Positions 1 through 57,003 of a DNA stretch of 57,003 bases are shown here, piece after piece (position 1 is the stretch's first letter; each line of letters starts with the position of its first letter). The notes under the pieces were generated by a model. That model was not told the DNA's origin, made no database searches, and saw nothing but the letters and a program-made list of their open reading frames with translations. The position numbers were made by a program, and so were the translations under genes. Source of the DNA: a virus; the IMG/VR virus record IMGVR_UViG_3300040801_002155, positions 1 through 57,003 of that record; one strand, given 5' to 3'.

Positions 1-117
1 ACGCCATCCTTATTAATATATGTCTGGGGGTTTGGAATGAATATTTTCTTTCCAGTTTTCTTATCGATCTTATAATAATCTCTTCGATATGGAACTCGAT
101 ATTCAGCAGATGCTCTA
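1..117. repeat. Exact 117-bp terminal direct repeat, copy 1 (identical to 56887-57003). It is the end overlap of a circularly closed or permuted assembly; unique length 56,886 bp
   Basis: The string acgccatccttattaatatatgtc...cagcagatgctcta is present at both window ends. The repeat lies inside an open reading frame and joins it in phase. Confidence 0.9.
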
Positions 118-2012
118 GAAACAATGGTTGTTGCCCCTTTTCTTGGGCCACCCTGATATTTTGCTTTAAGTTGGGCTATGCCATTATCCTTATATGATTG
201 TTGATAATTGAGACCGTGTTTTTCTGCGTCGATAACAACCATGGAATGACGAACGGCTCTTGCTATCTCATCACTAGTTGGGGATGCTCCTTTGATTGTC
301 ATATCCGTAATAAGATTTGAAATCTTTCCCATTTCTGTATCTTTATTTGCTATTGTCATTCTCTTCATTCCCGGAACGGCGGGGTATGAAATTTTTGGAT
401 CGAAATCTGCCAGGCCCTTTAATGATGGGGCTATCTCTATTTTATTAGCATTATTTGGAATAACTAATACGGTGTCACCATCAAAATCTGCTCCTGACAG
501 CTTTTGCGCCACATCGGGATGAACTCCGACAGCATCTCTTGCATTTCCTAAAAGATTTCTCATCTGTGGGTCTTTATTATTTACTTTCAATTGCGGAATT
601 TCAAATATGCCACCATGAGGATGTCGTATAAGAACCACAGTTTCGCCATTGTTATAATTCGGAGCATATATCTCTGTCGGCTTCATATTGGGTGCGGGTA
701 ATAAAACATGATTTGCTTGCCGAGGCATTGAGGCGGCTTTTAAATCGACCGCGTCTGAATCGCAAGAATCTGCAAAAGTAAGTAATAATTTTTGCTTTAT
801 CGTTGGGTTTGTTAATGACTTGTATTCGTCAAATTCTTCTTGCCTTATTTTTACGGCCGTATCTAATTGCTCTTTTGCGAATTTTGGTTTTTGTTTAGAT
901 AGCATTTGAGAGGACAAAGTATTAGACCATTCAAGCCATGAACCTTCAATATTAGACGTTGGACCAGTACCAACAACATTAAGTGCTGATATATGATCTT
1001 TACCATCTTTTCCTTTATAATGATACTGACGAATATCAGTGCCGAAAGGATTATCTGGATTATCCTCCATAACTTTAAAAACAGTATCTTTTTTTTCTCC
1101 CATTATCGGAGTTCCCTTAGGTTTATTGGTATTATAACGAATATCAACGCCATCGGGAAGATCATCGGCATACATTGCCATTCCTTTTAAATAATGTGAA
1201 CCATCAACTCCGATTCTTACTTGAGCGTATCTGGCTTCTCCCAATGAAATATCAGGAACGCCTCGTCGAAGTTCTATAACACCATCCTTATCTTTTCCAC
1301 CATCTTCTGCAAAATTTACGACAATTCGTTTACTATCGATATTATTAATTGGTTCAAGACCAAGCCAATTTCTACCACCATCATTACTCCATTCGGATAT
1401 GGTACGAATTTTATCTCGATTTGGAAAAAGCTCTGTCTTATAATCCACATCATCTTTTGTTAAAACTTTGATATATGTTTTTTTTCCACTCGGTTGGGGC
1501 GCGGTTACATATTGTAACTTATATCCATCTTTCTCTAGTTCTTTAATCGCTAAGTCTAACCGATGCCTGGTTACATTGGCATGATACTCAGACCCAGCGC
1601 CAACATCAACATAAAGCTTTTCCTCAACCTGTCTTCTTAACATATCGGCCGTTTTTTCTGTTATCAATGCTCTTTCTTGGGTGGCCGGATTTAATAAACT
1701 TTTAACTGTTCTTGGATCTACTCCCAATCTTTCTGCAATTGCGGCATCCGAATATCCTTTATCCTTTAAACGAAGCGCGAAGGAAGCATCGGCTTGTCTT
1801 TGGGCCGATTTCTCGGCGGAAAGCTCAGCGCGAAGTTGAGTTGTAGACTCAAAACCAAGACCCTTTGCAATGTTTATTTCGCTTAATCCTTTTTCTTTTA
1901 GTTCATTAACCCGATGCCTTAATGATGGCTCACTTTGATATGGGTCTTCACCGCTTCCCCAAGGATATCTTCCAGATCTTCTAGGGGTACCATAATGTTT
2001 TAATTCGGCCAT
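1..2012 (-). CDS. Single-chain two-barrel RNA polymerase (YonO / RdRP-like, with beta-type and beta-prime-type DPBB motifs), codons 1-671. The ORF runs off the left edge and continues in phase at 56886->56226 (890 codons in total)
   Basis: ATG at 2012..2010, with GAGGAG about 7 nt upstream. Hand translation shows no stop down to position 1. Codons 507-513 read GADFDGD (nt 474-494). Codons 460-470 read VLIRHPHGGIF. Codons 276-294 read KGMAMYADDLPDGVDIRYN (nt 1131-1187). The track omits it only because no stop lies inside the window. Confidence 0.75.
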   Translation of the reverse strand, partial: MAELKHYGTPRRSGRYPWGSGEDPYQSEPSLRHRVNELKEKGLSEINIAKGLGFESTTQLRAELSAEKSAQRQADASFALRLKDKGYSDAAIAERLGVDPRTVKSLLNPATQERALITEKTADMLRRQVEEKLYVDVGAGSEYHANVTRHRLDLAIKELEKDGYKLQYVTAPQPSGKKTYIKVLTKDDVDYKTELFPNRDKIRTISEWSNDGGRNWLGLEPINNIDSKRIVVNFAEDGGKDKDGVIELRRGVPDISLGEARYAQVRIGVDGSHYLKGMAMYADDLPDGVDIRYNTNKPKGTPIMGEKKDTVFKVMEDNPDNPFGTDIRQYHYKGKDGKDHISALNVVGTGPTSNIEGSWLEWSNTLSSQMLSKQKPKFAKEQLDTAVKIRQEEFDEYKSLTNPTIKQKLLLTFADSCDSDAVDLKAASMPRQANHVLLPAPNMKPTEIYAPNYNNGETVVLIRHPHGGIFEIPQLKVNNKDPQMRNLLGNARDAVGVHPDVAQKLSGADFDGDTVLVIPNNANKIEIAPSLKGLADFDPKISYPAVPGMKRMTIANKDTEMGKISNLITDMTIKGASPTSDEIARAVRHSMVVIDAEKHGLNYQQSYKDNGIAQLKAKYQGGPRKGATTIVSRASAEYRVPYRRDYYKIDKKTGKKIFIPNPQTYINKDG

Positions 2013-2015
2013 AAT

Positions 2016-2570
2016 TTACTCCTCTTGACTTAATCTTTGGATTCTCTCGTCGAAATCTTTTATTTTTTGCATTATGTAAAGTATGTCTTCTGGTACTGGA
2101 ATATGAATTAAAACCTCATCTAACTGGTATATTCTAAGTTCCATTTCAATCTCATTAGGACTATAATTATACTCTAAACAAAATAAGGCGGCATAAATTT
2201 CAAGCTGGGTTAAAGAAACTCTGGATTTTCCTGTTTTCAAATCATGAATTCTTAATATGTTGTCTCGAAAACATATGGCATCGGCGGTTCCAAAACAATT
2301 TGGAGAGTAATATAAAACGACTTCCGTTTCCATCTTAAAGCCAATACCATCGTTGACATATAAATTAAATGTTTTAGGAGATCTCGGTAATTTTTGTCTA
2401 AGGTCTATTAATTCAGCGGCCAATTCATGAAATCTAGTTCCTCTTTCGGCTGCTTTCCAATTTAAATATACTTCTTCTAATTTTAAGTCATCATAATTTA
2501 CCCAATGATATTTAGAAGCGGAAAGAAATGCATGAGAACCACTAAGACTTGAATGATTGTTCCAATTCAT
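2016..2570 (-). CDS. PD-(D/E)XK nuclease (DUF2800 / Cas4-like phage exonuclease)
   Basis: MNWNNHSSLSGSHAFLSASKYHW N-terminus; GTADAICF...IHDLKTGK fits D...(D/E)xK. I start at internal Met34 of the tracked ORF 2016..2669 because the longer form overlaps the upstream gene by 128 nt. Confidence 0.55.
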   Translation of the reverse strand: MNWNNHSSLSGSHAFLSASKYHWVNYDDLKLEEVYLNWKAAERGTRFHELAAELIDLRQKLPRSPKTFNLYVNDGIGFKMETEVVLYYSPNCFGTADAICFRDNILRIHDLKTGKSRVSLTQLEIYAALFCLEYNYSPNEIEMELRIYQLDEVLIHIPVPEDILYIMQKIKDFDERIQRLSQEE

Positions 2571-2868: not shown

Positions 2869-2908
2869 AAAAAATAAAATATGTAACTTAAGAGGTTACT
2901 TACTCTAT

Positions 2909-2933
2909 CCTTCATTATAGGCTATGTTTTTTT
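2909..2933 (-). promoter_or_regulatory. Weak variant of the conserved TATAATGAA promoter-like element, upstream of the VRR-NUC gene
   Basis: Minus strand reads AAAAAAACATAGCCTATAATGAAGG. It resembles the consensus ACAATAAAAACAAnnnnTATAATGAAACC. Confidence 0.3.
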
Positions 2934-2937
2934 AGTA

Positions 2938-4128
2938 TTAAAGACTTGTAAATCGATTTTCATTAAATTTTCTTTTTTGTCTAAGAGCTTTTCCAATAGC
3001 CTGGTCAATTTCGGAATTACTTGTAAGGGTGTAATAATATAAATCTACAAAAGGAGTATTTAATCGGTCAATTCTACCAGCTGCTTGAATCATTATTCTA
3101 TAAGAATAATTTTGTGAAAAGAAAACAACGGTATCAGTTTCAATACAGTTCCATCCTTCCGATCCAGCAATATATTGAACCAAATATAACCAACTATCTG
3201 TATTTGGAATCGGTTCATGCTTATGGCCATTCCATTCCGAATATGATATTCCATTTTTCTTTGCAAATTTTCTTAGAGCGCTAAGTTCATAATTAAAATT
3301 ATAGAATAAAACGATTTTGTTATGCTCTTCGAATATTTCTTTTAGTTTTACCAATCGATCAGGATCTGAATTTGATACTCTTCGTAAAAGATAACATAGT
3401 TTTGAAATGTCTCTTATTGGAGCATTATCATAAATATCCCAACGATCATACATCACTCTTCTTTGTTTTTCTTTATCAAAATTACAGACTATTCTTTTTT
3501 CATGAGAAATGGTTTTTCGAGTGAAATGCATATCTACAGTTATTTGATTTTTTAATTCTATTAATTTTGTTATTTGCAAATATCTTTCAACTTTTGGAAA
3601 TTTTGTAAATCGACTATATACTACGTGTCTTCTTATAAATTCTGTTCTATTTTTATAAAACCCATTTGCAATGAAGACGGGGATTAAATCCATCCACGTA
3701 TCAGCGGGAGTCGCAGTCAGTAATATCCATTGATTATTCTTTGCTATGTTAATGAATGACTTAACCCAAACTCCACTTCCAATTACTCGCTGTTCATCAA
3801 ATATAAAGAAGGCATCTTTAATGGATGTATAATTTTTAATTCTATTCCAACTATCTACCTTTTTTATTATTAATGGTATATTCGCTGCTTCCTTGACCCA
3901 ATCCAAAGTATCTCTTTTTCTAGCAGTTGTTATTACATATAAATCTTTTTTTAGACGCATAGGGGAATAAGTATCGTCGCCTTTTTGTAAAGTAATTCCT
4001 CCACAAATTTTTTCATAAAAATATACCAGCGACGTTAATGTTTTACCCGAGCCAACTCCGCCAACTAGAATTGACCCGGGTTTTAATTTCTCTATGGCCT
4101 TTTTTTGATGGTCATAGAGGGATATCAT
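2938..4128 (-). CDS. SNF2/DEAD-like superfamily-2 helicase
   Basis: Motif I GGVGSGKT, motif II FIFDEQ, motif VI QAAGRIDR. Start moved to ATG 4128 (MISLYDHQ), which has an AGAGGA RBS and lies just past the upstream stop. Confidence 0.75.
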   Translation of the reverse strand: MISLYDHQKKAIEKLKPGSILVGGVGSGKTLTSLVYFYEKICGGITLQKGDDTYSPMRLKKDLYVITTARKRDTLDWVKEAANIPLIIKKVDSWNRIKNYTSIKDAFFIFDEQRVIGSGVWVKSFINIAKNNQWILLTATPADTWMDLIPVFIANGFYKNRTEFIRRHVVYSRFTKFPKVERYLQITKLIELKNQITVDMHFTRKTISHEKRIVCNFDKEKQRRVMYDRWDIYDNAPIRDISKLCYLLRRVSNSDPDRLVKLKEIFEEHNKIVLFYNFNYELSALRKFAKKNGISYSEWNGHKHEPIPNTDSWLYLVQYIAGSEGWNCIETDTVVFFSQNYSYRIMIQAAGRIDRLNTPFVDLYYYTLTSNSEIDQAIGKALRQKRKFNENRFTSL

Positions 4129-8518: not shown

Positions 8519-8553
8519 TATAAGGACCTCCTTTCTTTATGTTTTTTGTCTAG

Positions 8554-8803
8554 TGTCACAAAATCCCACTTTTTTTGCCAACTTTCCCTATATATTTTTT
8601 TTTATTATAAAAAAAATTTTGTAGCGTAAACTGATTTTTGGGTGCAAAACTGTGACATTTTACCCAAAATAGGGCTTTTTTATCAAATTTACCCGTAAAA
8701 ATACCCTTTTTGCTGTCACACTTTTGTCACACTTTTGTCACATTTTTGCATTTGTCACACTTTTTTGTGACACTTTTTCAAAACTGTGACACTTTTTGTG
8801 ACA
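8554..8803. repeat. Cluster of nine TGT(C/G)ACA repeats; candidate replication origin or operator array
   Basis: TGTCACA at 8554, 8714, 8725, 8736 and 8753. TGTGACA at 8651, 8766, 8785 and 8797. Most are followed by C and a T-run, and several are 11-13 nt apart. A 32-nt A/T-only tract lies at 8589-8620. The whole 296-nt gap has no ORF. Confidence 0.6.
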
Positions 8804-8813
8804 CTTTTAACGA

Positions 8814-13066: not shown

Positions 13067-13100
13067 AAAGAAAATAGCCTAAGATTTCTCTCAGGCTATT
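13067..13100 (-). terminator. Rho-independent terminator, identical in sequence to 23967-24001
   Basis: Minus strand reads AATAGCCT-GAGAGAAATCTT-AGGCTATT followed by TTCTTTT. Confidence 0.7.
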
Positions 13101-13120
13101 TCTTTACCCTTATACAAGTT

Positions 13121-13345: not shown

Positions 13346-13365
13346 TTTTACTCCTTTAATATAGT

Positions 13366-13394
13366 GGGTTCATTATACCCTTTGTTTTTATTGT
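13366..13394 (-). promoter_or_regulatory. Conserved promoter-like element (ACAATAAAAACAAAGGGTATAATGAACCC)
   Basis: One of at least 11 copies of the same ~29-nt block, each ending about 20 nt upstream of an RBS and ATG. Confidence 0.5.
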
Positions 13395-13397
13395 CTT

Positions 13398-19674: not shown

Positions 19675-19766
19675 TATAGATCTCCTTTTTACTTTAGTAA
19701 TTTAAAAAAATATAAGAATAGTATTCTTTAATCATTTACCAGATCTGGCAAATGGAATACTACTCT

Positions 19767-19792
19767 ATTATAGGGTTTGTAATTTTTGTAGG
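19767..19792 (-). promoter_or_regulatory. Variant of the conserved promoter-like element
   Basis: Minus strand reads CCTACAAAAATTACAAACCCTATAAT, upstream of 18691..19674. Confidence 0.35.
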
Positions 19793-23966: not shown

Positions 23967-24001
23967 AAAAGAAAATAGCCTAAGATTTCTCTCAGGCTAT
24001 T
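23967..24001 (-). terminator. Rho-independent terminator, identical to 13067-13100
   Basis: Same 35-nt string aaaagaaaatagcctaagatttctctcaggctatt on the plus strand. Confidence 0.7.
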
Positions 24002-24008
24002 CGCTTTT

Positions 24009-24185: not shown

Positions 24186-24206
24186 TTCAACTCCTTAGAA
24201 TATAAT

Positions 24207-24235
24207 GGTTTCATTATAGGAGTTGTTTTTGTTGT
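24207..24235 (-). promoter_or_regulatory. Conserved promoter-like element (ACAACAAAAACAACTCCTATAATGAAACC)
   Basis: Copy of the ~29-nt block, upstream of 24009..24185. Confidence 0.5.
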
Positions 24236-24249
24236 CAAAACGTCTTGAG

Positions 24250-24447
24250 TTAGGCGGCCTCAACAACTGTTTCGGAAACTTCTTCCATCGCAGCCGCAAT
24301 GTTCTCAAGTTCATTAGGAACTTCGGTTCCGTACTGAACAGCTTTAACAAGCACGAATGCGCCAACTGCAACACCAACGGCAATCCCCGCGGTTTTCAAT
24401 GGATTTTCTTTTACGAAACTAACGACTTTACTAATTTGCTCTTGCAT
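24250..24447 (-). CDS. Small membrane protein (65 aa)
   Basis: TM segment AGIAVGVAVGAFVLV and an acidic tail. The N-terminus MQEQ is shared with 25065..25298. Confidence 0.5.
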   Translation of the reverse strand: MQEQISKVVSFVKENPLKTAGIAVGVAVGAFVLVKAVQYGTEVPNELENIAAAMEEVSETVVEAA

Positions 24448-24506
24448 TTTTTTACTCCTTTTAAATTAATAGTTTTTGATTTTATGTTTTTATGCGATAT
24501 ACTATT

Positions 24507-24692
24507 CTATGGTTTTTCGATGAAAATATAATATTTGCCGTCGGGCTCCTTTCTAATTACTCCATCATTTTCTATAGACGTTTCACTCATCCACAATTCA
24601 GCTTCTTTATACGAATTAAAATGCATTTTTTCATACTGTTTCATCTTGAAATTCGTAATTTTAATTCCGCCGCTTCCACTATATCCTTCCAT
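24507..24692 (-). CDS. Hypothetical protein (61 aa)
   Basis: Minus-strand ORF with a GGAGG RBS. Confidence 0.45.
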   Translation of the reverse strand: MEGYSGSGGIKITNFKMKQYEKMHFNSYKEAELWMSETSIENDGVIRKEPDGKYYIFIEKP

Positions 24693-24718
24693 ATTACCTC
24701 CTTAACAAAAAGTAAAGC

Positions 24719-25009
24719 CTAGGTTTCCCTAGGCAGTACTTCTTCTGATTCCGTTTTCATAGATTTGATTTTTTGAATCGTTTCCTTTCCAAAATCAGTG
24801 ACTTCAGTTACAATCTTCTCCGCAGAAGCGGCAACAGCCGCTCCAACAGTAGTCGCAATCGTTACCTCTCCAATTTTCACGAGTATCTCTGACGATTTAC
24901 TCATGACTACATCTTTGGTAACTTTCTTGACTGTCAGCTTGAGGACTTCCTTCGCTCCCATGGAGCTGATCGTTCCTGTCACTAATTTCACAATGGGAAT
25001 TACATTCAT
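24719..25009 (-). CDS. Hypothetical protein (96 aa)
   Basis: Minus-strand ORF directly downstream of a conserved promoter element. Confidence 0.5.
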   Translation of the reverse strand: MNVIPIVKLVTGTISSMGAKEVLKLTVKKVTKDVVMSKSSEILVKIGEVTIATTVGAAVAASAEKIVTEVTDFGKETIQKIKSMKTESEEVLPRET

Positions 25010-25034
25010 TTCTAATCTCCTTTACAAATAGTGT

Positions 25035-25063
25035 GGTTTCATTATACCCTTTGTTTTTATTGT
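25035..25063 (-). promoter_or_regulatory. Conserved promoter-like element (ACAATAAAAACAAAGGGTATAATGAAACC)
   Basis: Copy of the ~29-nt block, upstream of 24719..25009. Confidence 0.5.
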
Positions 25064-25064
25064 A

Positions 25065-25298
25065 CTATCCCTTGTATAATATTTTTCCAACAAAATTTGC
25101 AACAGCGGTTGTAGAACTGATCGCACAATATCCTGCAATTACCTTATGCCAGCTTTTAATTTCGGCCGCTCTCTGTTTATCAAAATTTTCATCCGGCTTG
25201 TAAACCGAGTTCAAACCTTCAGAAACTGCATTGAATGTAAGAATTGATGTTCCGACAATCGCCGTTATTAAAATGTATCCTTTCATTTGCTCTTGCAT
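25065..25298 (-). CDS. Small membrane protein (77 aa)
   Basis: Two hydrophobic segments. Confidence 0.5.
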   Translation of the reverse strand: MQEQMKGYILITAIVGTSILTFNAVSEGLNSVYKPDENFDKQRAAEIKSWHKVIAGYCAISSTTAVANFVGKILYKG

Positions 25299-25328
25299 TT
25301 TTACTCCTTTTCAGATAGTACTGGTGAA

Positions 25329-25904
25329 TTAATATCTTTTTTTTATTGGATCTGGTATTTCGGCACATTTTTCTGCATTAATTGGCCAATCATGATATTT
25401 TAATTGATTAAATATATCCAGAGGATTTGTTAATACCTCTGGATACCACACTTCATCATAAGTAATACTATGTTCTTTGAAGAATGAAATATCTAAAAGA
25501 GCAGTTGTTAATAGTCGCATAAGTTCATCATCGTCTAATTCATTGCCCATATGAATACGAACACGTTTTGCAGATTCAAATACTTCATGAATATCTCTTC
25601 GCATCATTACCGTTTTAAAGACAACATTTTTAGGCATTGTCCTTAACTCATCTACTTTATGAAGGAAAAGTTTTACTAATTGTCCTTCATACATAGCAGG
25701 AAAGTTCTTTTTATGCCGAGCCTTATAACCAAGCTCATAATATCCGTTTCTATTTGGTATATATCCATTTATAATTTTATCTCGTTTTGTATTTGATTCT
25801 TGATATGCTCCTTTCATTCCTCCAGCAATTAGAGATTCCATCATCATTGACGTTCCGCTACGAACCAGACCAGATACTACATAAACAATTTTTTGCTTCA
25901 TCAT
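25329..25904 (-). CDS. Sulfotransferase-like P-loop protein
   Basis: VVSGLVRSGTSMM resembles the 5'-PSB loop of PAPS-dependent sulfotransferases, and VMMRRDIHEVFES resembles the 3'-PB RDPxD motif. Judged from memory only. Confidence 0.4.
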   Translation of the reverse strand: MMKQKIVYVVSGLVRSGTSMMMESLIAGGMKGAYQESNTKRDKIINGYIPNRNGYYELGYKARHKKNFPAMYEGQLVKLFLHKVDELRTMPKNVVFKTVMMRRDIHEVFESAKRVRIHMGNELDDDELMRLLTTALLDISFFKEHSITYDEVWYPEVLTNPLDIFNQLKYHDWPINAEKCAEIPDPIKKRY

Positions 25905-25936
25905 TTTATCCTTTGAAATAGTTTATGAAAAAGAAA

Positions 25937-25990
25937 AGGGTCTGTTAGACCCTAGTCTTTTGAAACGGCAAAAAGGGTCTTTTAGACCCT
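25937..25990 (-). terminator. Tandem pair of near-identical Rho-independent terminators
   Basis: AGGGTCT-nnn-AGACCCT hairpins at 25937-25953 and 25974-25990. On the minus strand each is followed by a T-run. The second overlaps the stop of 25982..26302. Confidence 0.65.
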
Positions 25991-26302
25991 AGTCTTTGAG
26001 ACGAAAGAAATCGCCTTGCTTGAGATAATGTCCAATTTCTCGTGTCCGATGATCAATAATATGCCCAGTAGATTAGTTGCCGCCGAGACGATCACGTTCG
26101 GGTCAACCTTATCAAAAAACCGTTTGTCTACAGATTCTTTTTCTGTAGGCTTTTCTTCTTTTAACAAATTGGCCAAAACCTTGAGCCTCTCGTTCAGGTC
26201 TCTAAACTTTGTGGGATCTTTTTCTTCCATCATTTCACGGATGATTTTTCTCATCTCTTTGCGAAGTTCCTCTCTCGTTTCAAGATCTACTATGGTTTCC
26301 AT
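25982..26302 (-). CDS. Hypothetical protein with a C-terminal TM segment (106 aa)
   Basis: Charged helical N-terminus, then VSAATNLLGILLIIG. Confidence 0.55.
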   Translation of the reverse strand: METIVDLETREELRKEMRKIIREMMEEKDPTKFRDLNERLKVLANLLKEEKPTEKESVDKRFFDKVDPNVIVSAATNLLGILLIIGHEKLDIISSKAISFVSKTRV

Positions 26303-26319
26303 CTTTACTCCTTTCTAGT

Positions 26320-26347
26320 GGTTTCATTATAAGGCATGTTTTATTTG
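26320..26347 (-). promoter_or_regulatory. Degenerate copy of the conserved promoter-like element
   Basis: Minus strand reads CAAATAAAACATGCCTTATAATGAAACC. It overlaps the 3' end of 26341..27066. Confidence 0.3.
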
Positions 26348-27066
26348 CGGGGCGTGACCTCATAACTTAAAACCAGACAAGGTTTTCCATCTTTAGTTAA
26401 CTGACTTGAGAAATTTATTTGTATTAGGCCATCATCCACATTAAATCCTAAATCATAGCCCAAATCTGTGGGGTCTAATCCCAGTTCATAATAAAAATCA
26501 TTTAGTGAAATAAATCCTTCAAGCATCAGTTCACGATTTGTTTCGTTTATTTTTTGTCTAATCTTTTCAATATCCGATTGAAAATATCTTCCACTTAAAG
26601 CATCAAGGCATAATACATCCCCAGATCCAGTAATTATCACATGTGTTTGAGGATTTGCAAATACTTTATCTTGATCAATCGCATCACGAAGTACTTGCTC
26701 TTTCTTTTCTCCTATTGTTTCTACAACTTTTTGACGATATTCATTTAGTGTAGACTGGGTTATAGAATATAATCCAACAAGGGCCGCCTTTTTCCTTTCA
26801 TTAATCGTATTGGCCCCAAGTATTGCAACCGTCGTTATGATTACACTAGCCGCTGTTGGAATATAAAATTTCCATGCAACTTTGATTTTCTCCTTCGTTG
26901 TTTCGCACTCATATTTTCTTATGGCTTCTACTGCCTTCGGGGTTGCGTCAATCGCAAAGACCGTTGAAGTAAATAAACCTGTAATGGCTATCCCCGTAAG
27001 GATATGAGTGCTGTTTTGTTCGACAAATCTTCCAAGTCCCTTCATGCTTTGTTTTATACTAAACAT
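26341..27066 (-). CDS. Two-TM hypothetical protein, paralog of 18691..19674
   Basis: Shared architecture and the SLNDFYYELGL motif. Confidence 0.6.
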   Translation of the reverse strand: MFSIKQSMKGLGRFVEQNSTHILTGIAITGLFTSTVFAIDATPKAVEAIRKYECETTKEKIKVAWKFYIPTAASVIITTVAILGANTINERKKAALVGLYSITQSTLNEYRQKVVETIGEKKEQVLRDAIDQDKVFANPQTHVIITGSGDVLCLDALSGRYFQSDIEKIRQKINETNRELMLEGFISLNDFYYELGLDPTDLGYDLGFNVDDGLIQINFSSQLTKDGKPCLVLSYEVTPRK

Positions 27067-27598: not shown

Positions 27599-27751
27599 TT
27601 AACGGTTAAATTGTTCCGCAAATGTATCAATCTTTTCTCTTTGATTTTTGATACGTTTATCAATCTTACGACTTATAAGAATTGCTCTTACAGCCGAAAC
27701 AATTGATATCATAAAAAAAATTCCTGATATAACTAATACTATAGCAAACAT
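27599..27751 (-). CDS. Mini membrane protein A (50 aa) of the cassette array
   Basis: Hand translation: MFAIVLVISGIFFMISIVSAVRAILISRKIDKRIKNQREKIDTFAEQFNR. RBS AAAGGAGATTAAAAATG. Confidence 0.55.
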   Translation of the reverse strand: MFAIVLVISGIFFMISIVSAVRAILISRKIDKRIKNQREKIDTFAEQFNR

Positions 27752-27774
27752 TTTTAATCTCCTTTTAATAGTAT

Positions 27775-27850
27775 GGTTTCATTATAGGAGTTGTTTTTAT
27801 TGTAGGAGAGAAAGAAATAAACCGATGTTTTGGTTTACTTCTTTTGAAAC
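27775..27850 (-). promoter_or_regulatory. Terminator-plus-promoter cassette, copy 1
   Basis: Minus strand reads GTTTCAAAAGAAGTAAACCAAAACATCGGTTTATTTCTTTCTCTCCTACAATAAAAACAACTCCTATAATGAAACC. It combines a 10-bp hairpin (one G.U pair, on the minus strand only) with the promoter block. Confidence 0.55.
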
Positions 27851-27866
27851 TTAATCTTCGGGCTTT

Positions 27867-28049
27867 TCATTTTTTTGAATAAAATTCCTCTCGGATCATT
27901 CCTGCCATTCCAAGTATACCGAAGAGCAGATACATGACTCCAAAAATTGGATGATATACATCATCAAATTTGAAGAAGAACAAATACGTTCCCCAAGCAA
28001 CTACGGAAGTGTACAAGAATATCTGAATATAAAAAATTATTCTACTCAT
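27867..28049 (-). CDS. Mini membrane protein B (60 aa)
   Basis: Tracked ORF MSRIIFYIQIFLYTSVVAWGTYLFFF...; two TM segments. Confidence 0.55.
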   Translation of the reverse strand: MSRIIFYIQIFLYTSVVAWGTYLFFFKFDDVYHPIFGVMYLLFGILGMAGMIREEFYSKK

Positions 28050-28070
28050 TTTTAAACTCCTTTTAATAGT

Positions 28071-28146
28071 GGTTTCATTATAGGAGTTGTTTTTATTGTA
28101 GGAGAGAAAGAAATAAACCGATGTTTTGGTTTACTTCTTTTGAAAT
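28071..28146 (-). promoter_or_regulatory. Terminator-plus-promoter cassette, copy 2
   Basis: Near-identical to copy 1. Confidence 0.55.
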
Positions 28147-28152
28147 TTAACT

Positions 28153-28305
28153 TTATGGTTTATTGATTGTAATCTTAACGATTCCCAATTCTCGAATCAT
28201 TAGTGCAATAAATACTGCTACGATGATCACTTTCCCAAAAGGGATCACCGAAACAATAATCGATACAATAACAAGTGTGAATAGGGCTTTAATTAACCTC
28301 TTCAT
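28153..28305 (-). CDS. Mini membrane protein C (50 aa)
   Basis: Hand translation: MKRLIKALFTLVIVSIIVSVIPFGKVIIVAVFIALMIRELGIVKITINKP. Confidence 0.55.
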   Translation of the reverse strand: MKRLIKALFTLVIVSIIVSVIPFGKVIIVAVFIALMIRELGIVKITINKP

Positions 28306-28328
28306 TTCAATTCTCCTTTTAATAGTAT

Positions 28329-28409
28329 GGTTTCATTATACCCTTTGTTTTTTTTGTAGGTAAGGAGAGAAAGAAATAAACCGATGTTTTGGTTTACTTC
28401 TTTTGAAAC
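28329..28409 (-). promoter_or_regulatory. Terminator-plus-promoter cassette, copy 3 (AGGG variant)
   Basis: Same hairpin. The promoter block reads ACAAAAAAAACAAAGGGTATAATGAAACC. Confidence 0.55.
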
Positions 28410-28589
28410 TCAATTGAATATAAAATCGAGCGACTCTGCATATTTATCTGAAAGTTCCTCAGGCTCTACTCCTGCAATTAGAGCAAGTATAGTGAAGCTT
28501 ACAATATATAAAAATACTGCAAGCGACCCAATAATTGATTTAATTACAACTAATATAACCATGAGAACACGTAAAATAAATTGTTTCAT
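28410..28589 (-). CDS. Mini membrane protein D (59 aa)
   Basis: Hand translation: MKQFILRVLMVILVVIKSIIGSLAVFLYIVSFTILALIAGVEPEELSDKYAESLDFIFN. Confidence 0.55.
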   Translation of the reverse strand: MKQFILRVLMVILVVIKSIIGSLAVFLYIVSFTILALIAGVEPEELSDKYAESLDFIFN

Positions 28590-28612
28590 CTTAATCTCCT
28601 TTAATAGTTAAT

Positions 28613-28693
28613 GGTTTCATTATACCCTTTGTTTTTTTTGTAGGTAAGGAGAGAAAGAAATAAACCGATGTTTTGGTTTACTTCTTTTGAAAC
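28613..28693 (-). promoter_or_regulatory. Terminator-plus-promoter cassette, copy 4
   Basis: Identical to copy 3 over the part I compared. Confidence 0.55.
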
Positions 28694-28861
28694 TTAATCT
28701 TCATCTAAGAATGTCTTCATGCTCTTTTCTAAATTTTTCATTGTTACTTGTGCAATGTATGGCGCGATGATTGGGGACAATAGTAGTTGAACTACCGCCC
28801 AAATAGCTTGCGCTAATACGAGTGCAAAAATAATCAATACGAAATCTACAAATGTAAACAT
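28694..28861 (-). CDS. Mini membrane protein E (55 aa)
   Basis: Hand translation: MFTFVDFVLIIFALVLAQAIWAVVQLLLSPIIAPYIAQVTMKNLEKSMKTFLDED. Confidence 0.55.
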   Translation of the reverse strand: MFTFVDFVLIIFALVLAQAIWAVVQLLLSPIIAPYIAQVTMKNLEKSMKTFLDED

Positions 28862-28885
28862 TTTTAATCTCCTTTAATAGTTAAT

Positions 28886-28972
28886 GGTTTCATTATACCC
28901 TTTGTTTTTTTTGTAGGTCTAATAAAGGAGAGAAAGAAATAAACCGATGTTTTGGTTTACTTCTTTTGAAAC
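28886..28972 (-). promoter_or_regulatory. Terminator-plus-promoter cassette, copy 5
   Basis: Same as copy 3, with a short insertion (tctaataaa) between the hairpin and the promoter. Confidence 0.55.
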
Positions 28973-28974
28973 TT

Positions 28975-29157
28975 TTAATCTTTGGATTTGTCATTTAGAA
29001 CGCTCGCGGCTGCGAATAATACTAGCAGCCCTGTAATGTAGAACGTCCCTACCGTATAGAGGCTATCCTGACTTGCGCCAGTAAACACCAATACGGTGAG
29101 GAACACCCCACCCAACAAGGCAAATAATAAATATCCGATTTCCTTTAGTACTTTCAT
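28975..29157 (-). CDS. Mini membrane protein F (60 aa)
   Basis: MKVLKEIGYLLFALLGGVFLTVLVF... The tracked 69-aa form starts at the ATG inside the promoter motif (TATAATGAAACC) and is probably too long. Confidence 0.55.
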   Translation of the reverse strand: MKVLKEIGYLLFALLGGVFLTVLVFTGASQDSLYTVGTFYITGLLVLFAAASVLNDKSKD

Positions 29158-29176
29158 TTCAACTCCTTTTAATAGT

Positions 29177-29245
29177 GGTTTCATTATAGGAGTTGTTTTT
29201 GTTGTAAGAAAAATAAAAGCCGATGTTATGGCTTCTATTTTTTAC
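29177..29245 (-). promoter_or_regulatory. Terminator-plus-promoter cassette, copy 6 (different hairpin, AAGCC/GGCTT)
   Basis: Promoter block conserved. The hairpin sequence has diverged, but the structure and the T-run are retained. Confidence 0.5.
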
Positions 29246-29248
29246 CAG

Positions 29249-29398
29249 TTAGTTAATAGTTGATAGTACATTTAAAATTTCTAGATAATTATTTTTGACT
29301 GCTTGTCCTAATAAGGTAGCAACAATAATAACAATTAATGCAACTACCATAAATAAGAAAAAACGTTCACAAATCAAATCTACAAATTTTGTATTCAT
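29249..29398 (-). CDS. Mini membrane protein G (49 aa)
   Basis: Hand translation: MNTKFVDLICERFFLFMVVALIVIIVATLLGQAVKNNYLEILNVLSTIN. Confidence 0.5.
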   Translation of the reverse strand: MNTKFVDLICERFFLFMVVALIVIIVATLLGQAVKNNYLEILNVLSTIN

Positions 29399-29419
29399 TT
29401 CAACTCCTTAAAATATAGT

Positions 29420-29448
29420 GGTTTCATTATAGGAGTTGTTTTTATTGT
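29420..29448 (-). promoter_or_regulatory. Conserved promoter-like element, first copy after the end of the late operon
   Basis: Minus strand reads TTACAATAAAAACAACTCCTATAATGAAACC. Confidence 0.5.
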
Positions 29449-29484
29449 AAGAAAAAAAATATACGGTACGTTAATTCTGCAACC

Positions 29485-49881: not shown

Positions 49882-50820
49882 TTAACTTCTTATACTAATG
49901 TCTTGTTTTCGCAAATCTTTTAATAAATCAGATAGGTGTTTTGAATCCATCTCCTTTCCAATAAATAGATTTTTCCAATCAGTTTGTTCTTTATTAGTGG
50001 CCCTATTTATTAAATTTTCTAATGAATCATCGCCAAAATTAAGTGGATAGGCCATATAATCTTTATATTGATCCCAGTGTTTTAAACTAAAATTTTCAAT
50101 AATAGTACTTCCACTGCAAGGAATATGCTGACCAAATCCTATTGTTGGTTTCCCTCTAGCAACGGATAAGTACATAAACGTTCCTTCTGCAATGACTAAA
50201 TCCGCATCATCGATATCTCGATAAGATCCATCTGGTTTTCCAAATATAAGCTTAATTCGAGAATCTTTCCATAATCCAATATTTTCTAAGGGATTTAGTA
50301 CTCGTGCTTTAATATTATACTGATCGGAAATATCTAGTAATTTTTTATAAACATTCGCGTTTTCTTCCTTCTTTACATCTGGAAGTGCGTTGCTATGCAT
50401 TGATCCGTGAATCGGTGCAAATAAAATATTTCGAACTTTTGGTGGTTTTTTGAATGGCATAATTGGACAAAAATACCAGCCAATTACATAATGTTGTAAA
50501 TATGGACGCATAATTTCTTCAATATGCTTATGTCCCTCGCCAATGACTAAGTTTGCAAATATCTTCTTGTTTGGGGGAAAGTAATCGCTATCATTCCACC
50601 AAGCTCCTGTTGCTCCATGTGGATAGGTAATAATTGTGGCCCACTCATCATAATATTTATTAACTAATCCACGTCCAAGTTCGGGATTAAGCCTATTAAT
50701 TACGTGATCAAATAATGCAACACTAGCTCTACGCCGTCTAAAATACCATCCTTCTTTTTTTAAGGCTTCATCGATGCCCATTCCTTTATGCTGATGGTGT
50801 GAAATAAAGTATCTCATCAT
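49882..50820 (-). CDS. Hypothetical enzyme-like protein (312 aa), translationally coupled to the methyltransferase
   Basis: The start ATG at 50820 forms an ATGA overlap with the methyltransferase stop. The tracked 371-aa form overlaps that gene by 181 nt. A possible GT-B-like transferase, but I cannot support this from motifs. Confidence 0.5.
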   Translation of the reverse strand: MMRYFISHHQHKGMGIDEALKKEGWYFRRRRASVALFDHVINRLNPELGRGLVNKYYDEWATIITYPHGATGAWWNDSDYFPPNKKIFANLVIGEGHKHIEEIMRPYLQHYVIGWYFCPIMPFKKPPKVRNILFAPIHGSMHSNALPDVKKEENANVYKKLLDISDQYNIKARVLNPLENIGLWKDSRIKLIFGKPDGSYRDIDDADLVIAEGTFMYLSVARGKPTIGFGQHIPCSGSTIIENFSLKHWDQYKDYMAYPLNFGDDSLENLINRATNKEQTDWKNLFIGKEMDSKHLSDLLKDLRKQDISIRS

Positions 50821-51422
50821 GACAATATCCAGATAAACTCCCATGGGGCTTTTTTGCCCTTTATAGATTTGACAATGATAAATCCGGCCTTTAGAATGTG
50901 CCTTTCCCATGTATTGCGTTTCAAATGCCATTCCACTTGATGGCTTCCGATCTTTGTTCTTCGAAAAGCTTCTGGGCCTTTGGAATAGTCCAAACAATTT
51001 GGGACTTCGAGATAAAATAGCCCGTCATATGTAAGTCGCGACTTCATATCGATTAGAAAATCTTGAAGATGATACATATGCTCTGCTGTACCAAGACACC
51101 AAATTAAATCGAAAGTTTTTATATCTTCGAATTCGTTTTTGGTAGTAAACCTGGCATCTGGAACTTTTGCTTGGGCTAACTTTATCGCTTCTTCGGATAT
51201 GTCGATACCATACGGATTGGCAAATGGATTTTTCTTGTGATACCAGTCCAAAGCTACACCAGTTCCACAACCAAAGTCGAGAATATTATTTGGCGTCGGA
51301 GCATATGGATCTAGCATTTCATACATGAATTCTACTTTTTCTGTACTGGGCCACTTATTTGGGTTTTTGCGGTAAATTTCATTGTATTCTTGTTGTATCT
51401 CTTCTCTGGTTCGATCTTCCAT
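50817..51422 (-). CDS. Class I SAM-dependent methyltransferase
   Basis: Motif I ILDFGCGTGVAL, followed by GIDISEEA and DLIWCLGTAEH. Confidence 0.7.
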   Translation of the reverse strand: MEDRTREEIQQEYNEIYRKNPNKWPSTEKVEFMYEMLDPYAPTPNNILDFGCGTGVALDWYHKKNPFANPYGIDISEEAIKLAQAKVPDARFTTKNEFEDIKTFDLIWCLGTAEHMYHLQDFLIDMKSRLTYDGLFYLEVPNCLDYSKGPEAFRRTKIGSHQVEWHLKRNTWERHILKAGFIIVKSIKGKKAPWEFIWILS

Positions 51423-51458
51423 AAATTATCTCCTTTCAGAAATTACTTCCATTTTGAC

Positions 51459-52019
51459 TTAGCCCACTCCCAATAATGGTAGGAGTGGAGGTCCAGAACT
51501 AAGTATGCCTCGGTACCAGGTTGTGGTTAAATTCCAAGCAACTGCTGTATTAAAAACATACTCGCCTCTATAAAAACCAACCCCAAAATCTATTAAAGTA
51601 GGATCGGCACTATAACTAACTGAGCATTGTACTAATACTTCTACATCAATGTCAACCTGCGTATTTGCTGGTATTGATTTCATTAATATATCAGCGCTAG
51701 CACCGAAATTACCAGTTACAGAACCAGTAGCTCCTTTATTTGGGCCCTCTAAAACTAAGTAATTACTAACATTTGCATATTTTTTCTGTATTCTTAAAAA
51801 CAAACTTCTTGGTTGTGCGAACTGGCTCGTGTCATAAACAGTACCTGTAATCTTGAGCTTTGCGGTCATAATATATGAGCTGCCGTTTTCAACCCCATCC
51901 CATACTAATACTTCCCCCACAACCGATTTACTAGATGTGCTTTTTACATATTCTACATTATCAGAGATATTCGATTGTGAGTATAACGGCCACCTAGCCC
52001 TTATATTTGGGTAAACCAT
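51459..52019 (-). CDS. Hypothetical protein (186 aa)
   Basis: Minus-strand ORF, beta-rich composition. Confidence 0.55.
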   Translation of the reverse strand: MVYPNIRARWPLYSQSNISDNVEYVKSTSSKSVVGEVLVWDGVENGSSYIMTAKLKITGTVYDTSQFAQPRSLFLRIQKKYANVSNYLVLEGPNKGATGSVTGNFGASADILMKSIPANTQVDIDVEVLVQCSVSYSADPTLIDFGVGFYRGEYVFNTAVAWNLTTTWYRGILSSGPPLLPLLGVG

Positions 52020-52021
52020 AA

Positions 52022-52555: not shown

Positions 52556-52564
52556 CTATTCCTC

Positions 52565-52930
52565 CTAAGCCTTAAATCCACATGCACTAACTTGAACCTT
52601 TGCGCCTGTAGTTTCGCAAACAACGTAAATTGCCGTTTTTGCCGAGAACATTAATGGAGCTGGAAAATCTAATGCAAATCCGCCGCCTTCTTTTGCTGCG
52701 TTGGCACGCCATTTTGTTTCTCCATTTAACCCATCTGTAAGTTTCACAACCGTTGAGACAGTATCATGATTGTTGGTTACTGACAGCGTTGTAATATATA
52801 ATTCTTCATTAATTCCAGTTGGAGCAGGAATTAAAAGAACTGGAGTTGTATCTTCAATATCATCCAGTGCCGCTGATACAAGATTACCTGCATATGCATA
52901 TCCGCCAAGCGGAAAATCAGTTAAACCCAT
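52565..52930 (-). CDS. Hypothetical beta-rich protein, paralog of 52022..52555
   Basis: ITTLSVTNNHDTVSTVVKLTDGLNGETKWRANAAKEGGGFALDFPAPLMFSAKTAIYVVCETTGAKVQVSACGFK. Start set at MGLTDFP (RBS GGGAGG). Confidence 0.55.
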   Translation of the reverse strand: MGLTDFPLGGYAYAGNLVSAALDDIEDTTPVLLIPAPTGINEELYITTLSVTNNHDTVSTVVKLTDGLNGETKWRANAAKEGGGFALDFPAPLMFSAKTAIYVVCETTGAKVQVSACGFKA

Positions 52931-55163: not shown

Positions 55164-55185
55164 TGTTTATGCCTCCTTTCTTTGA

Positions 55186-55449
55186 CTATTGGGGTAGTTT
55201 GAGAGTATTTGTTATATATTTATTGTTCTATTGCAGCCTGATGGATGCCCATTGTCTGAAAGGAGAACGGTGCTCACCAACACCGGTTTGGAAGAAGACC
55301 AACAAAAAGCAATGGACACCCACTAGGCCGCAATAGGCCTCCTCAGAAATATCCCCCGGAGATTTTTTTGGGAGCGAGGCGATTTTTAAGGGGGGGATGG
55401 TTGCTGACCTCGGCCCCCCCTATGCCTTCACTCTTCTCACTACATCGAG
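55186..55449 (-). other. GC-rich, structure-dense non-coding island: candidate cos/pac site, late promoter or leader, or ncRNA
   Basis: No ORF of 60 aa or more in any frame. G7...C7 hairpin at 55390-55420. GGCC-6 nt-GGCC at 55326-55339. An 8-bp helix pairs 55247-55254 with 55310-55317 and encloses hairpins at 55268-55285 and about 55286-55303. Confidence 0.5.
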
Positions 55450-56225: not shown

Positions 56226-57003
56226 TTAATCATCTCCTTTATTATTAATTGCATCCATTAGTGTTGTAATTGGAAGCCCAAGTAATTTAGCTACTTCGGC
56301 TTGTGTATATCCTCTATTAAATAGAACCAGGGCTTTTGAAATCTTGGCATTGGATACTATCGGTTTTTCTCTGGGGGTTGCGTATTGCTTAATCAAATCT
56401 AAGTCGGTATTATTTAGAATCTGTTTTAAGAAATTATTTGAAACGGCTCCGGCTTGGATTGCTTCCCATTCTTTTTCTGTTATTGGGATTTGTTGCTTCT
56501 TAGCTCCGACTCTATGCCGGGCTTCTACTATTGCCATGCCTTTCATTTTTTTTAGTTGCTTTTTTGACAGCTCGGGATTGGCTTGCTTTTGTGCCTGGTA
56601 CTTACTATCTGCAAGTAATAATGCTTGCCTTTCTAATGGCTTATTACTTTTAGCAAGGGCAAGTTTAGACTTCAATGCGGCTACTTCTTTATCATACGTT
56701 TTATATGCAGAGGGGGAATAATTTAGATTTGGAGTATTTACGGCAAGTTTTCTTGCTTCATCTGCCATGGCTTTCATTGAATTTGCATAGTTTGCATATA
56801 CGGTTTCCATTACAGTGCCGGAACTTAAAGTAAATGCATCATCGGTCTCATACATTTGAGTCGATTTTGTTTTCCGATCGACGGTTACGCCATCCTTATT
56901 AATATATGTCTGGGGGTTTGGAATGAATATTTTCTTTCCAGTTTTCTTATCGATCTTATAATAATCTCTTCGATATGGAACTCGATATTCAGCAGATGCT
57001 CTA
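56226..57003 (-). CDS. C-terminal part (codons ~633-890) of the YonO/RdRP-like RNA polymerase that begins at 2012. Positions 56887-57003 duplicate 1-117
   Basis: The frame is open from the right edge to the stop at 56226-56228 and in phase with ATG 2012: (2012+56886-56855)/3 = 681. The tracked 209-aa ORF starts at internal Met682. C-terminal HTH-like YTQAEVAKLLGLPITTLMDAI. Confidence 0.75.
   Translation of the reverse strand, partial: RASAEYRVPYRRDYYKIDKKTGKKIFIPNPQTYINKDGVTVDRKTKSTQMYETDDAFTLSSGTVMETVYANYANSMKAMADEARKLAVNTPNLNYSPSAYKTYDKEVAALKSKLALAKSNKPLERQALLLADSKYQAQKQANPELSKKQLKKMKGMAIVEARHRVGAKKQQIPITEKEWEAIQAGAVSNNFLKQILNNTDLDLIKQYATPREKPIVSNAKISKALVLFNRGYTQAEVAKLLGLPITTLMDAINNKGDD
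56887..57003. repeat. Exact 117-bp terminal direct repeat, copy 2
   Basis: Identical to 1-117. Confidence 0.9.

Follow-up and report, generated by a model that had tools for sequence, protein, structure and literature searches.

A predicted two-barrel RNA polymerase from the family of phage 1706 ORF75, its gene divided by the ends of a circular viral contig, and a candidate promoter motif

Introduction

The two-barrel RNA polymerases, a superfamily described by Iyer (2003) and by Ruprich-Robert and Thuriaux (2010), share eight invariant residues: three aspartates and a fourth, an Arg-x-Pro pair and two basic residues (PMC2919709). Phages can encode such enzymes as a single chain. One of these, YonO of SPbeta, is an RNA polymerase of the DNA-dependent type (PMC5467207), and gp64 and gp96 of Thermus phage P23-45 are described as RNA polymerases that transcribe phage genes (PMC10770324). 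Outside the phages, QDE-1 is described as having DNA- plus RNA-dependent activity (PMC9508822). The manner in which single-chain, two-barrel polymerases find their promoters was left open for YonO (PMC5467207). Here, we describe a polymerase gene in a stretch of viral DNA of 57,003 nucleotides, positions 1 to 57,003 of the IMG/VR record IMGVR_UViG_3300040801_002155, hereafter the window. The gene is cut in two by the ends of the window, and an earlier interpretation made from the letters alone, the sequence-only reading, had proposed it to be a YonO-like, late-gene polymerase.

A relative already described is ORF75 of Lactococcus phage 1706, which belongs to one of five "YonO-like" families named in 2010 (PMC2919709). 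Koert et al. subsequently described the protein as a putative polymerase with a helix-turn-helix (HTH) at both ends and a DxDGD loop, and as a signature gene shared across a supercluster of phages of Actinobacteria and Firmicutes (bioRxiv 10.1101/842583, 2021). A second body of work concerns the polymerases carried inside virions. Those of N4, crAss-like, jumbo and P23-45 phages transcribe the first phage genes after injection (PMC10770324; PMC7824862).

Results

A gene divided by the ends of the contig

Bases 1–117 of the window are identical to bases 56887–57003, and this is the sole length at which a prefix of the window exactly equals a suffix, so the window is a circularised contig of 56,886 bp. 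The terminal duplicate (56887..57003, no strand) is, by its exact identity, an overlap left where a circular or concatemeric molecule was assembled. We rejected the alternative of a biological terminal repeat, as the actual ends are predicted at a conserved cos site, 55372/55373, described below.

The polymerase frame opens on the minus strand with an ATG at 2012..2010, is free of stops to base 1 and continues in phase from 56886 to a TAA at 56228..56226, for a total of 2673 nt, or 890 codons plus the stop. The 5' part (1..2012, minus) holds codons 1–670 and the first two bases of codon 671, and the 3' part (56226..56886, minus) holds the remainder of codon 671 through codon 890 and the TAA. 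A ribosome-binding site, GAGGAG, can be read 6 nt 5' of the ATG (2019..2024, minus). The remaining genes of the window are all on the minus strand as well. The list of open reading frames (ORFs) has no minus-strand entry for 1–2015; it begins at 2016 and contains only the tail of the gene, 56226..56855, starting from the internal Met682, because the program that made it omits ORFs that run off an end. All of this had been proposed in the sequence-only reading, that is, the joined frame and its length, the ribosome-binding site, the tail from Met682, the loss of the gene for want of a stop inside the window and the shared orientation of the other genes, and the joined translation, the ORF list and the rule of the lister agree with it at each point.

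That reading had also allowed that an assembly error could have brought together two halves that are not contiguous. More than 100 full-length homologues, 57–89% identical, align through codon 671 without an insertion or deletion, and the consensus N-terminus of the family begins at the same Met as the window polymerase. This colinearity argues that the join is genuine and not an assembly artefact.

Fold and active site

In the PHROG library, the 890-residue protein matches phrog_4291, "RNA-dependent RNA polymerase", from end to end (residues 3–886 against profile positions 11–907 of 909, E=0, 1146.8 bits). An AlphaFold model built on 72 sequences (pLDDT 81.4, pTM 0.69) contains two six-stranded regions, at residues ~230–350 and ~430–520, with DFDGD placed just ahead of the last strand of the second. 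The barrels were judged from this strand count and from whole-chain fold matches, not from psi-loop topology. When the model was compared with the PDB using Foldseek, the top match was QDE-1 (E 3.9e-9), and RDR2 of maize and Arabidopsis (E 5.6e-6), P74-26 gp62 (E 1.2e-4) and the P23-45-type gp64 (E 4.8e-4) were also found, all with probability 1.0. Weak matches were seen to gp66 of the crAss-like phage phi14:2 (E 1.1e-2, probability 0.47) and to the large subunits of African swine fever virus (ASFV), bacterial and eukaryotic enzymes, with cellular beta-prime chains at E 0.01–0.1. Among viral models, an "RNA dependent RNA polymerase" (E 2.9e-7) and a P23-45 protein (E 2.2e-5) were matched. Sequence and profile searches of the PDB with the polymerase returned only HTH look-alikes, so the assignment of the fold rests on structure prediction. 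The Pfam RdRP family (PF05183) scored below threshold at residues 500–605 (18.8 bits against a cut-off of 23.8); a precomputed match to it exists for a few homologues, and a published HHpred run gave PF05183 at 95.7% for this family (bioRxiv 10.1101/842583). Taken as modelled, the window protein is a single-chain, two-barrel RNA polymerase with both barrels in 890 residues.

The first, beta-subunit-like barrel (residues ~230–350; 963..1325, minus) has six strands in the model and contains D243, R266 and K276; here, VRIGVDGSHYLKG aligns with VRL--PWVKG of YonO, with a 5-residue insertion. The second, beta-prime-like and putatively catalytic barrel (residues ~430–520; 453..725, minus) also has six strands and contains R463-x-P465-H466 and D509-F-D511-G-D513, the latter at bases 488–474. 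R463-H-P465-H466 aligns with LRSPH of YonO, the reference pairs being Rpb1 R446/P448 and Qde1 R962/P964. Further pairs in the profile alignment with the YonO family are LIRHPH/ILRSPH, ADFDGD/FDNDGD and MGKISNLITDM/IGEYSNNITKIW. R266 and K276 would be the two basic residues of the beta-like barrel (reference Rpb2 K979/K987; Qde1 R738/K743). D243-G244, which is invariant and lies 23 residues before R266, was left unpaired with TDG of YonO in the profile alignment, and D243 is probably the fourth acidic residue (Rpb2 D837; Qde1 D709).

Conservation follows these positions closely. D509/D511/D513, R463/P465, R266/K276 and D243 are each kept in at least 95% of 171 diverse relatives, as are H466 and K276-G277, and D509-F-D511-G-D513 is invariant among 72 close relatives. 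By alignment, the three aspartates of DFDGD, the R-x-P and the R...K would be the residues that in every two-barrel polymerase hold the incoming NTP and the catalytic Mg2+; together with D243, probably, they would correspond to the eight invariant positions of PMC2919709.

The protein has HTH units at both ends, as already noted for this family (bioRxiv 10.1101/842583). Two lie in the N-terminal region, residues ~31–107 (1692..1922, minus), which contains modelled helices at 31–51 and 89–107; Pfam identifies HTH_23 (32.9 bits, cut-off 24.6) and Sigma70_r4_2 (26.3 bits, cut-off 25.7) at residues 79–107. The C-terminal unit, residues ~850–889 (56232..56351, minus), has modelled helices at 850–889 and matches HTH_24 (23.8 bits, cut-off 21.9) and HTH_3 (24.2 bits, cut-off 23) at residues 861–885.

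The sequence-only reading fared well on the core of the protein. The peptides it quoted, VVLIRHPHGG...SGADFDGDTVLVIP and GSHYLKGMAMYADDLPDGVDIRYNTN around K276, are present. The former is its beta-prime-like motif, and DFDGD and RxPH do fall in the second barrel; its beta-subunit-like motif (GSHYLKGM...) corresponds to the conserved R...KG at the same place in the first. The claim that one chain holds both barrels is upheld by the two six-stranded regions and the whole-chain fold matches. The check that it proposed, HMMER/Pfam searches and Foldseek on an AlphaFold model, was positive for QDE-1, RDR2 and gp62/gp64, while Pfam RdRP stayed below threshold. Of the architectures to which it likened the protein, QDE-1 stands as the closest solved fold, the likeness to crAss gp66 is weak and membership of the YonO family was not upheld. 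It passed over the two terminal HTH regions and the conserved peptide at the N-terminus.

Family placement and distribution

BLASTP aligns the window polymerase colinearly with 1706 ORF75 at 40% identity (E 3e-138), and the orthologue in Arthrobacter phage Cheesy (gp100) is ~52% identical. In comparison, YonO itself matches PHROG 8308 (E=0), whereas the window polymerase matches that profile only in part (residues 431–782, E 3.1e-5). An alignment of the two families with hhalign was sensible and colinear but statistically weak (E 0.021), and hhalign of the window family with the single YonO sequence failed to support a match (hhalign gave E 0.015–0.021 in these comparisons). A comparison of hidden Markov models (HMM-HMM) between the two families scored <10 bits. 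The YonO family proper was rejected on these grounds, and with it the assignment in the sequence-only reading. Sequence comparison thus places the window polymerase as an orthologue of 1706 ORF75 in PHROG 4291, YonO-like at the superfamily level only.

The family is large. A tblastn search identified 250 cultured phages with a full-length orthologue, and their hosts include Arthrobacter (95), Gordonia (55), Streptomyces (54) and Lactococcus (13); other carriers are human-gut siphoviruses and phages of Curtobacterium, Microbacterium, Rhodococcus and Faecalibacterium. A profile search of 1.84 billion representatives yielded 3,512 clusters at 50% identity, 1,163 of them below 1e-30. Megablast of the gene against cultured phages and an exact-protein look-up for the closest homologue (P0001) gave no match. 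Most of the 250 phage records label the orthologue "helix-turn-helix DNA-binding domain protein"; some RefSeq entries say "RNA-dependent RNA polymerase", and that of Faecalibacterium phage FP_oengus is a "putative RNA polymerase". The novelty implied by the sequence-only reading was therefore too high, as the family was published in 2010 (PMC2919709) and 2021 (10.1101/842583) and is labelled in PHROGs and RefSeq. The window gene is an uncultured addition to a known, biochemically uncharacterised family and is not new as a family.

A promoter-like motif

Along its coding strand, the window carries repeated copies of a motif of ~33 nt. We counted a reduced version of this motif, ACA-N5-TATA[AG]T, on each strand and in shuffled sequences. 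The window has 13 copies on the coding strand and 0 on the other, with a shuffle mean of 1.8. The corresponding values are 9, 1 and 0.76 for Arthrobacter phage Cheesy, 13, 1 and 2.15 for Lactococcus phage 1706, and 12, 1 and 0.28 for Gordonia phage Tanis. The control SPbeta has 0 copies on either strand (shuffle mean 1.66), and the control SPP1, for which there are counts only, has 1 and 0. Strong enrichment and strand specificity are thus found in four enzyme-carrying genomes, those of three known host genera in two phyla and the window. Single copies occur in Streptomyces phage HotFries and in a metagenomic relative that is 67% identical. The consensus sequences derived for each phage share YRCR-N6/7-ACA-N5-TATART-RGAA, and the window has its own variant, TACAA-N-AAAAACA-N5-TATAAT-GAAACCA.

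All 13 sites in the window are intergenic, and for 10 of them the distance to the following start codon is 23–31 nt. The first copies in every genome come directly after the tail genes, ahead of an array of small genes; a few more are found in the replication region and none in the structural arm. The copy that precedes the exonuclease and polymerase genes, AATACTAAAAAAACATAGCCTATAATGAAGGAT (2907..2939), is 915 nt upstream of the polymerase start, and relatives have one at a similar distance upstream of their polymerase gene, at 54804 in Cheesy (938 nt) and at 9110 in the relative L009 (~890 nt). The motif scan placed the other copies, which like the first are on the minus strand, at 13365..13397, at 19760..19792 (the variant AAATTACA-N5-TATAAT-AGAG, closest to the form in the Arthrobacter phage), at three dispersed positions within 24206..26351 (24206–24238, 25034–25066 and 26319–26351) and in an array of seven within 27774..29451. 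In this array, most copies (28966–27600) are followed by a ribosome site, an ORF of 50–69 codons and a hairpin terminator.

The region 27600–29450 can be described as a tandem array of six or seven mini transcription units of ~280 bp, and at least some of the ORFs look like small membrane proteins. For clusters AM, AU, DJ and CC, "many small transmembrane genes in the centre of the genome" have been reported, and the array fits this description. Simple ORF calling missed or mis-started two of the small ORFs in the array.

In a single Gordonia phage, the motif had been noticed in a genome announcement, where it was interpreted as a sigma-70 promoter (PMC9671010). On aligned sites, a manual count shows that the upstream boxes are not at the spacing of a sigma-70 -35 element, and scans with the sigma-70 consensus gave no enrichment over shuffles. 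A scan of ~45 ORFs turned up neither a sigma factor nor another transcription factor. Our literature search found no paper that links the motif to the polymerase or notes that the motif crosses phyla. As the motif is conserved across phyla, its reader would appear to be phage-encoded, and the HTH-bearing polymerase is the obvious shared candidate.

The N-terminal peptide

The first 27 residues of the polymerase are predicted to be disordered, yet they are conserved to the same degree as the active site. Within them is the peptide LKHYGTPRRSGRYPWGSG (residues 4–21; 1950..2003, minus; pLDDT <50). At least 95% of 171 diverse relatives retain its H6, G8, S13, G14, R15, G19, S20 and G21. Two deposited gene starts look wrong in this light: in HotFries (L006, 40580–40664) the conserved HYG peptide is encoded 5' of the annotated start, and the annotated start of 1706 orf75 adds ~20 residues before it.

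When the pattern HYG.{1,12}WG was searched for in the ORFs of the window, it was found in the polymerase, g17 and g18 only. These two small genes (g17, 45622–45113; g18, 45104–44631; minus) lie between terminase and portal and encode the DUF7211 motif (L)xHYGxxGMKWG (Pfam DUF7211, PF23847, E 3e-8 and 3.5e-7). In Cheesy, the pattern is limited to gp7, gp9 and the polymerase, and in HotFries to the polymerase and gp5, which is encoded just before terminase; 1706 orf7 has the variant HRG...WG, alongside orf75. The resemblance of the polymerase peptide to DUF7211 is a lead at the level of pattern (HYG-x(2-7)-G-x(2,3)-WG) and not membership. In the GenBank record of 1706, orf7 and orf75 are both labelled "structural protein", and the label is repeated for gp106 of Pepy6.

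As a separate observation, the small proteins with the DUF7211 motif (g17/g18, Cheesy gp7/gp9, HotFries gp5 and 1706 orf7) are always encoded beside terminase or portal genes.

Genome organisation

The window has a GC content of 36%. Its replication end is transcribed in the order DNA polymerase/primase (8518–4691), ssDNA-binding or annealing protein, helicase, exonuclease (2669–2016) and polymerase. The polymerase is followed by two small genes and a GC-rich gap of 286 nt (55449–55164), which holds the predicted cos site (55361..55420, minus). Here, 55373 is the last base of the right end, ...ATCGCCTCGCT, and 55372 the first of the left end, CCCAAAAAAATC...; both are preceded by a G7...C7 inverted repeat (55420–55390). 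The right and left termini deposited for Cheesy, 1706, HotFries, Tanis and Pepy6 can be aligned with the cos sequence ...ATCGCCTCGCT | CCCAAAAAAATCTCCGGGGG..., and for Pepy6 a 3' overhang of 9 nt is annotated. The end sequences are conserved in phages of Arthrobacter, Lactococcus, Streptomyces, Gordonia and Rhodococcus.

In linear virion DNA, the polymerase gene would lie ~0.85 kb from the right cos end, as in cultured relatives; its position after the helicase and exonuclease genes, next to that end, is common to the window and the relatives of 1706 ORF75. Beyond the gap come genes for an HNH endonuclease and a virion protein, then ~6 kb in which most genes have no family match, and then terminase (47377–45632). 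Between the polymerase and terminase lie the two small genes, then cos and ~8 kb containing other genes. Downstream of terminase are the two small DUF7211 genes, the portal, a protease-capsid fusion and tail genes that end near 29539. The statement in the sequence-only reading that the polymerase gene is the last before the late region holds on the circular map only and not for linear virion DNA. The late-gene role that it drew from this is weak and is not supported; the virion label of the orthologue and the confinement of motif copies to the non-structural arm point away from it.

Between cos and terminase is a gene resembling metallophosphatases and DNA-repair exonucleases (phrog_704, 48765–47428). 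PHROG and Pfam scans gave no match for the ORFs of 363, 371, 224, 177 and 186 aa in this interval, the first of which sits at the endolysin position of relatives, and, in a scan of 49882–56225, none for the 176-aa ORF directly after the polymerase. A 628-codon gene at 41427–43313 matches a head maturation protease profile from end to end (phrog_3270) and, in its C-terminal part, that of a major head protein; it is a protease-capsid fusion of the kind already described for Arthrobacter clusters AM and AU. The non-coding gap of 295 nt 5' of the DNA polymerase/primase gene (8519–8813, minus) contains six copies of AGTGT(C/G)ACA on the coding strand (8805–8722), with degenerate copies of TGTGACA/TGTCACA nearby. 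By sequence, these repeats look like replication-origin iterons or operator sites. Near-identical, strong terminator hairpins (GAAATAGCCTGAGAGAAATCTTAGGCTATTTT) are present at 13071–13102 and 23973–24002 (minus); at both sites the hairpin is part of a 45-nt repeat, the two copies of which share 93% identity. An Rfam scan of the window gave no match and a tRNA search of it found none.

Discussion

In our judgement, there is about an even chance that the enzyme is a promoter-specific, sigma-independent phage transcriptase that acts on the conserved motif and is possibly delivered in the virion. It would be a self-contained, phage-specific, DNA-dependent RNA polymerase of the 1706 ORF75 family. 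The built-in HTH modules that flank the core, some of them resembling sigma region 4, would replace a sigma factor and direct the enzyme to the ~30-bp motif YRCR-N6/7-ACA-N5-TATART-RGAA, copies of which lie ahead of 13 gene starts in the non-structural arm, that of the exonuclease-polymerase pair among them. With less confidence, the disordered N-terminal peptide may be an assembly or targeting signal common to small proteins of the head module; the enzyme might then be packaged in the capsid and be injected with the DNA, after which, as in N4, crAss-like phages and P23-45, it would begin to transcribe the small-gene array without the host polymerase. For the structural arm, which has no copy of the motif, transcription would come from read-through over the joined cos ends or from another promoter.

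Several points weigh against this view. The motif contains a perfect -10 hexamer for a primary sigma factor, and the host polymerase, with or without a phage activator at ~-30, could use it. HotFries carries just one strict match. If the polymerase gene is itself behind the same type of promoter, it would need a first dose of enzyme, which is explained only by packaging or by the host reading the motif. For packaging, the Pfam DUF7211 model gives no match at E<=10 on the polymerase N-terminus, and a profile made from that N-terminus finds g17 and g18 only weakly (E 0.018 and 0.35). The "structural protein" annotation is a GenBank feature label. SDS-PAGE and LC-MS/MS of virions reportedly served to identify the structural proteins of 1706, and contaminants in purified phage can also show up in mass spectrometry. 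The equivalences of D243, R266 and K276 rest on motif alignment and not on superposition on QDE-1, and a literature search found no biochemical study of the PHROG 4291 family and no biochemical or transcript data for any member.

The main rival is that the enzyme is a late polymerase in the style of YonO. Here, the host enzyme would read the TATAAT-bearing early and middle promoters, including the one ahead of the polymerase gene, and the phage enzyme would then transcribe the ~26-kb structural arm as one operon from a promoter near cos. We consider this possible rather than probable. In SPbeta, the late genes form a single operon that YonO transcribes from one start site (PMC5467207), and the circular map places the gene upstream of a structural arm that has only short gaps and no internal copy of the motif; a host sigma-A would also account for the perfect -10 hexamer. 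It would leave the ACA and YRCR boxes unexplained, however, and these hold a fixed, non-sigma-70 spacing in Lactococcus, Arthrobacter and Gordonia phages, with single copies in the Streptomyces phage and the metagenomic relative. The 286-nt gap around cos yielded no candidate late promoter, and an early, injected enzyme is a better fit to the orthologue being annotated as a virion protein. Moreover, the kinship with YonO is distant (a different PHROG, a partial profile match), which makes transfer of function unsafe.

Two further explanations keep the host polymerase, or the names in the databases, at the centre. In the first, which we think unlikely, the motif is a "middle-promoter" site made of a -10 element and a phage box at ~-30, as for T4 MotA; the HTH units of the protein would act as the activator of a redirected host polymerase, and its polymerase core would serve priming or R-loop formation. 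The three HTH units, the short spacing between the -10 element and the upstream boxes, and the place of the gene after those for DNA polymerase/primase, ssDNA-binding protein, helicase and exonuclease are in its favour. A dedicated primase-polymerase is already encoded, though, and the catalytic residues are as conserved as those of the HTH units, so polymerase activity appears to be under selection. No characterised two-barrel phage enzyme is known to act in this way (N4, crAss-like, P23-45, YonO and jumbo-phage systems). In the second, the database names would be correct, and the protein would either make double-stranded or antisense RNA as a genuine RNA-dependent RNA polymerase or be merely an HTH regulator with a dead polymerase fold. 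That QDE-1 is the closest solved fold, the weak match to Pfam RdRP and the HTH label on most of the 250 phage records speak for it, but the RdRP name derives from homology only, a dsDNA phage has no obvious RNA template, YonO is DNA-dependent, the Thermus phage enzymes transcribe phage genes and QDE-1 shows DNA-dependent activity as well. A dead fold is, in addition, hard to reconcile with the Asp triad, R-x-P, R...K and probably D243 being conserved in at least 95% of relatives. We regard this second explanation as very improbable.

Returning to the sigma-independent, motif-specific transcriptase, a broader and more tentative form of the proposal is that a very large, for the most part mis-annotated group, the 250 cultured siphoviruses of Actinobacteria and Firmicutes and >3,500 metagenome clusters, carries a virion-packaged, sigma-independent, two-barrel polymerase whose fused HTH units read a ~30-bp promoter that crosses phyla (YRCR-N6/7-ACA-N5-TATART) and whose N-terminal peptide loads the capsid. 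If the enzyme is injected with the DNA, this would be a widespread new class of virion polymerases in siphoviruses of ordinary size. The gene itself is a routine, easily overlooked member of a published family, and its case shows that ORF callers lose genes that are split by the ends of a circular contig. The family merits attention because it is large, mostly labelled only as a helix-turn-helix DNA-binding protein and never biochemically characterised. For the question of how such enzymes find promoters, it offers built-in DNA-binding domains, a candidate promoter and easy phage-host pairs (Arthrobacter, Gordonia and Lactococcus).

Comparison with known systems

In fold, the best matches are QDE-1 and RDR2 (PF05183), which align over nearly the whole chain, and for which, as for YonO, the beta-like barrel is stated to be without an inserted flap domain (PMC7824862). 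The differences are a TM-score of ~0.33, an identity of 11–15%, a Pfam RdRP score below threshold and the setting, that of a phage protein with HTH units and no reason to expect RNA templates.

The gp64 of Thermus phage P23-45 and gp62 of P74-26, which are not in the virion, and gp96, which is in the virion and fused to the tape measure, are likewise single-chain, two-barrel polymerases of siphoviruses, and in the P23-45 system each enzyme has its own promoter motif (PMC10770324). They have no detectable sequence similarity to the window polymerase, which is without a tape-measure fusion; any packaging of it would take a route other than that of gp96, by way of the N-terminal peptide. The same life-cycle logic would apply to gp66 of the crAss-like phage phi14:2 and to the virion RNA polymerase (vRNAP) of N4, if the virion annotation of the 1706 orthologue holds. 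Here, gp66 is also a two-barrel enzyme, of >2,000 residues, to which the fold match is weak (E 1.1e-2, probability 0.47), and the N4 vRNAP has a T7-like fold.

YonO (SPbeta, PHROG 8308) is similar in being a phage-encoded, single chain of ~100 kDa with two barrels, the DxDGD triad, RxPH and R...KG in the same order and no accessory domains of the cellular type. Unlike the window polymerase, it has neither an HTH detected by Pfam nor the HYG peptide, its C-terminus has a CxxC...CxxC pattern, its late-gene role has been shown, and SPbeta is without the promoter-like motif (0/0).

The closest likeness is to the 1706 ORF75 family itself, which includes Cheesy gp100, Tanis gp92 and ReqiPepy6 gp106. 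The 1706 protein is ~140 residues longer than the window polymerase, and the window phage differs from these relatives in being of low GC (36%) and uncultured and in having its own variant of the motif. They agree in other respects: the proteins are colinear over their full length, with the same N-terminal peptide, an HTH at both ends and DFDGD, and the genes lie after an exonuclease gene and next to the right cos end, in genomes with the same kind of promoter-like motif.

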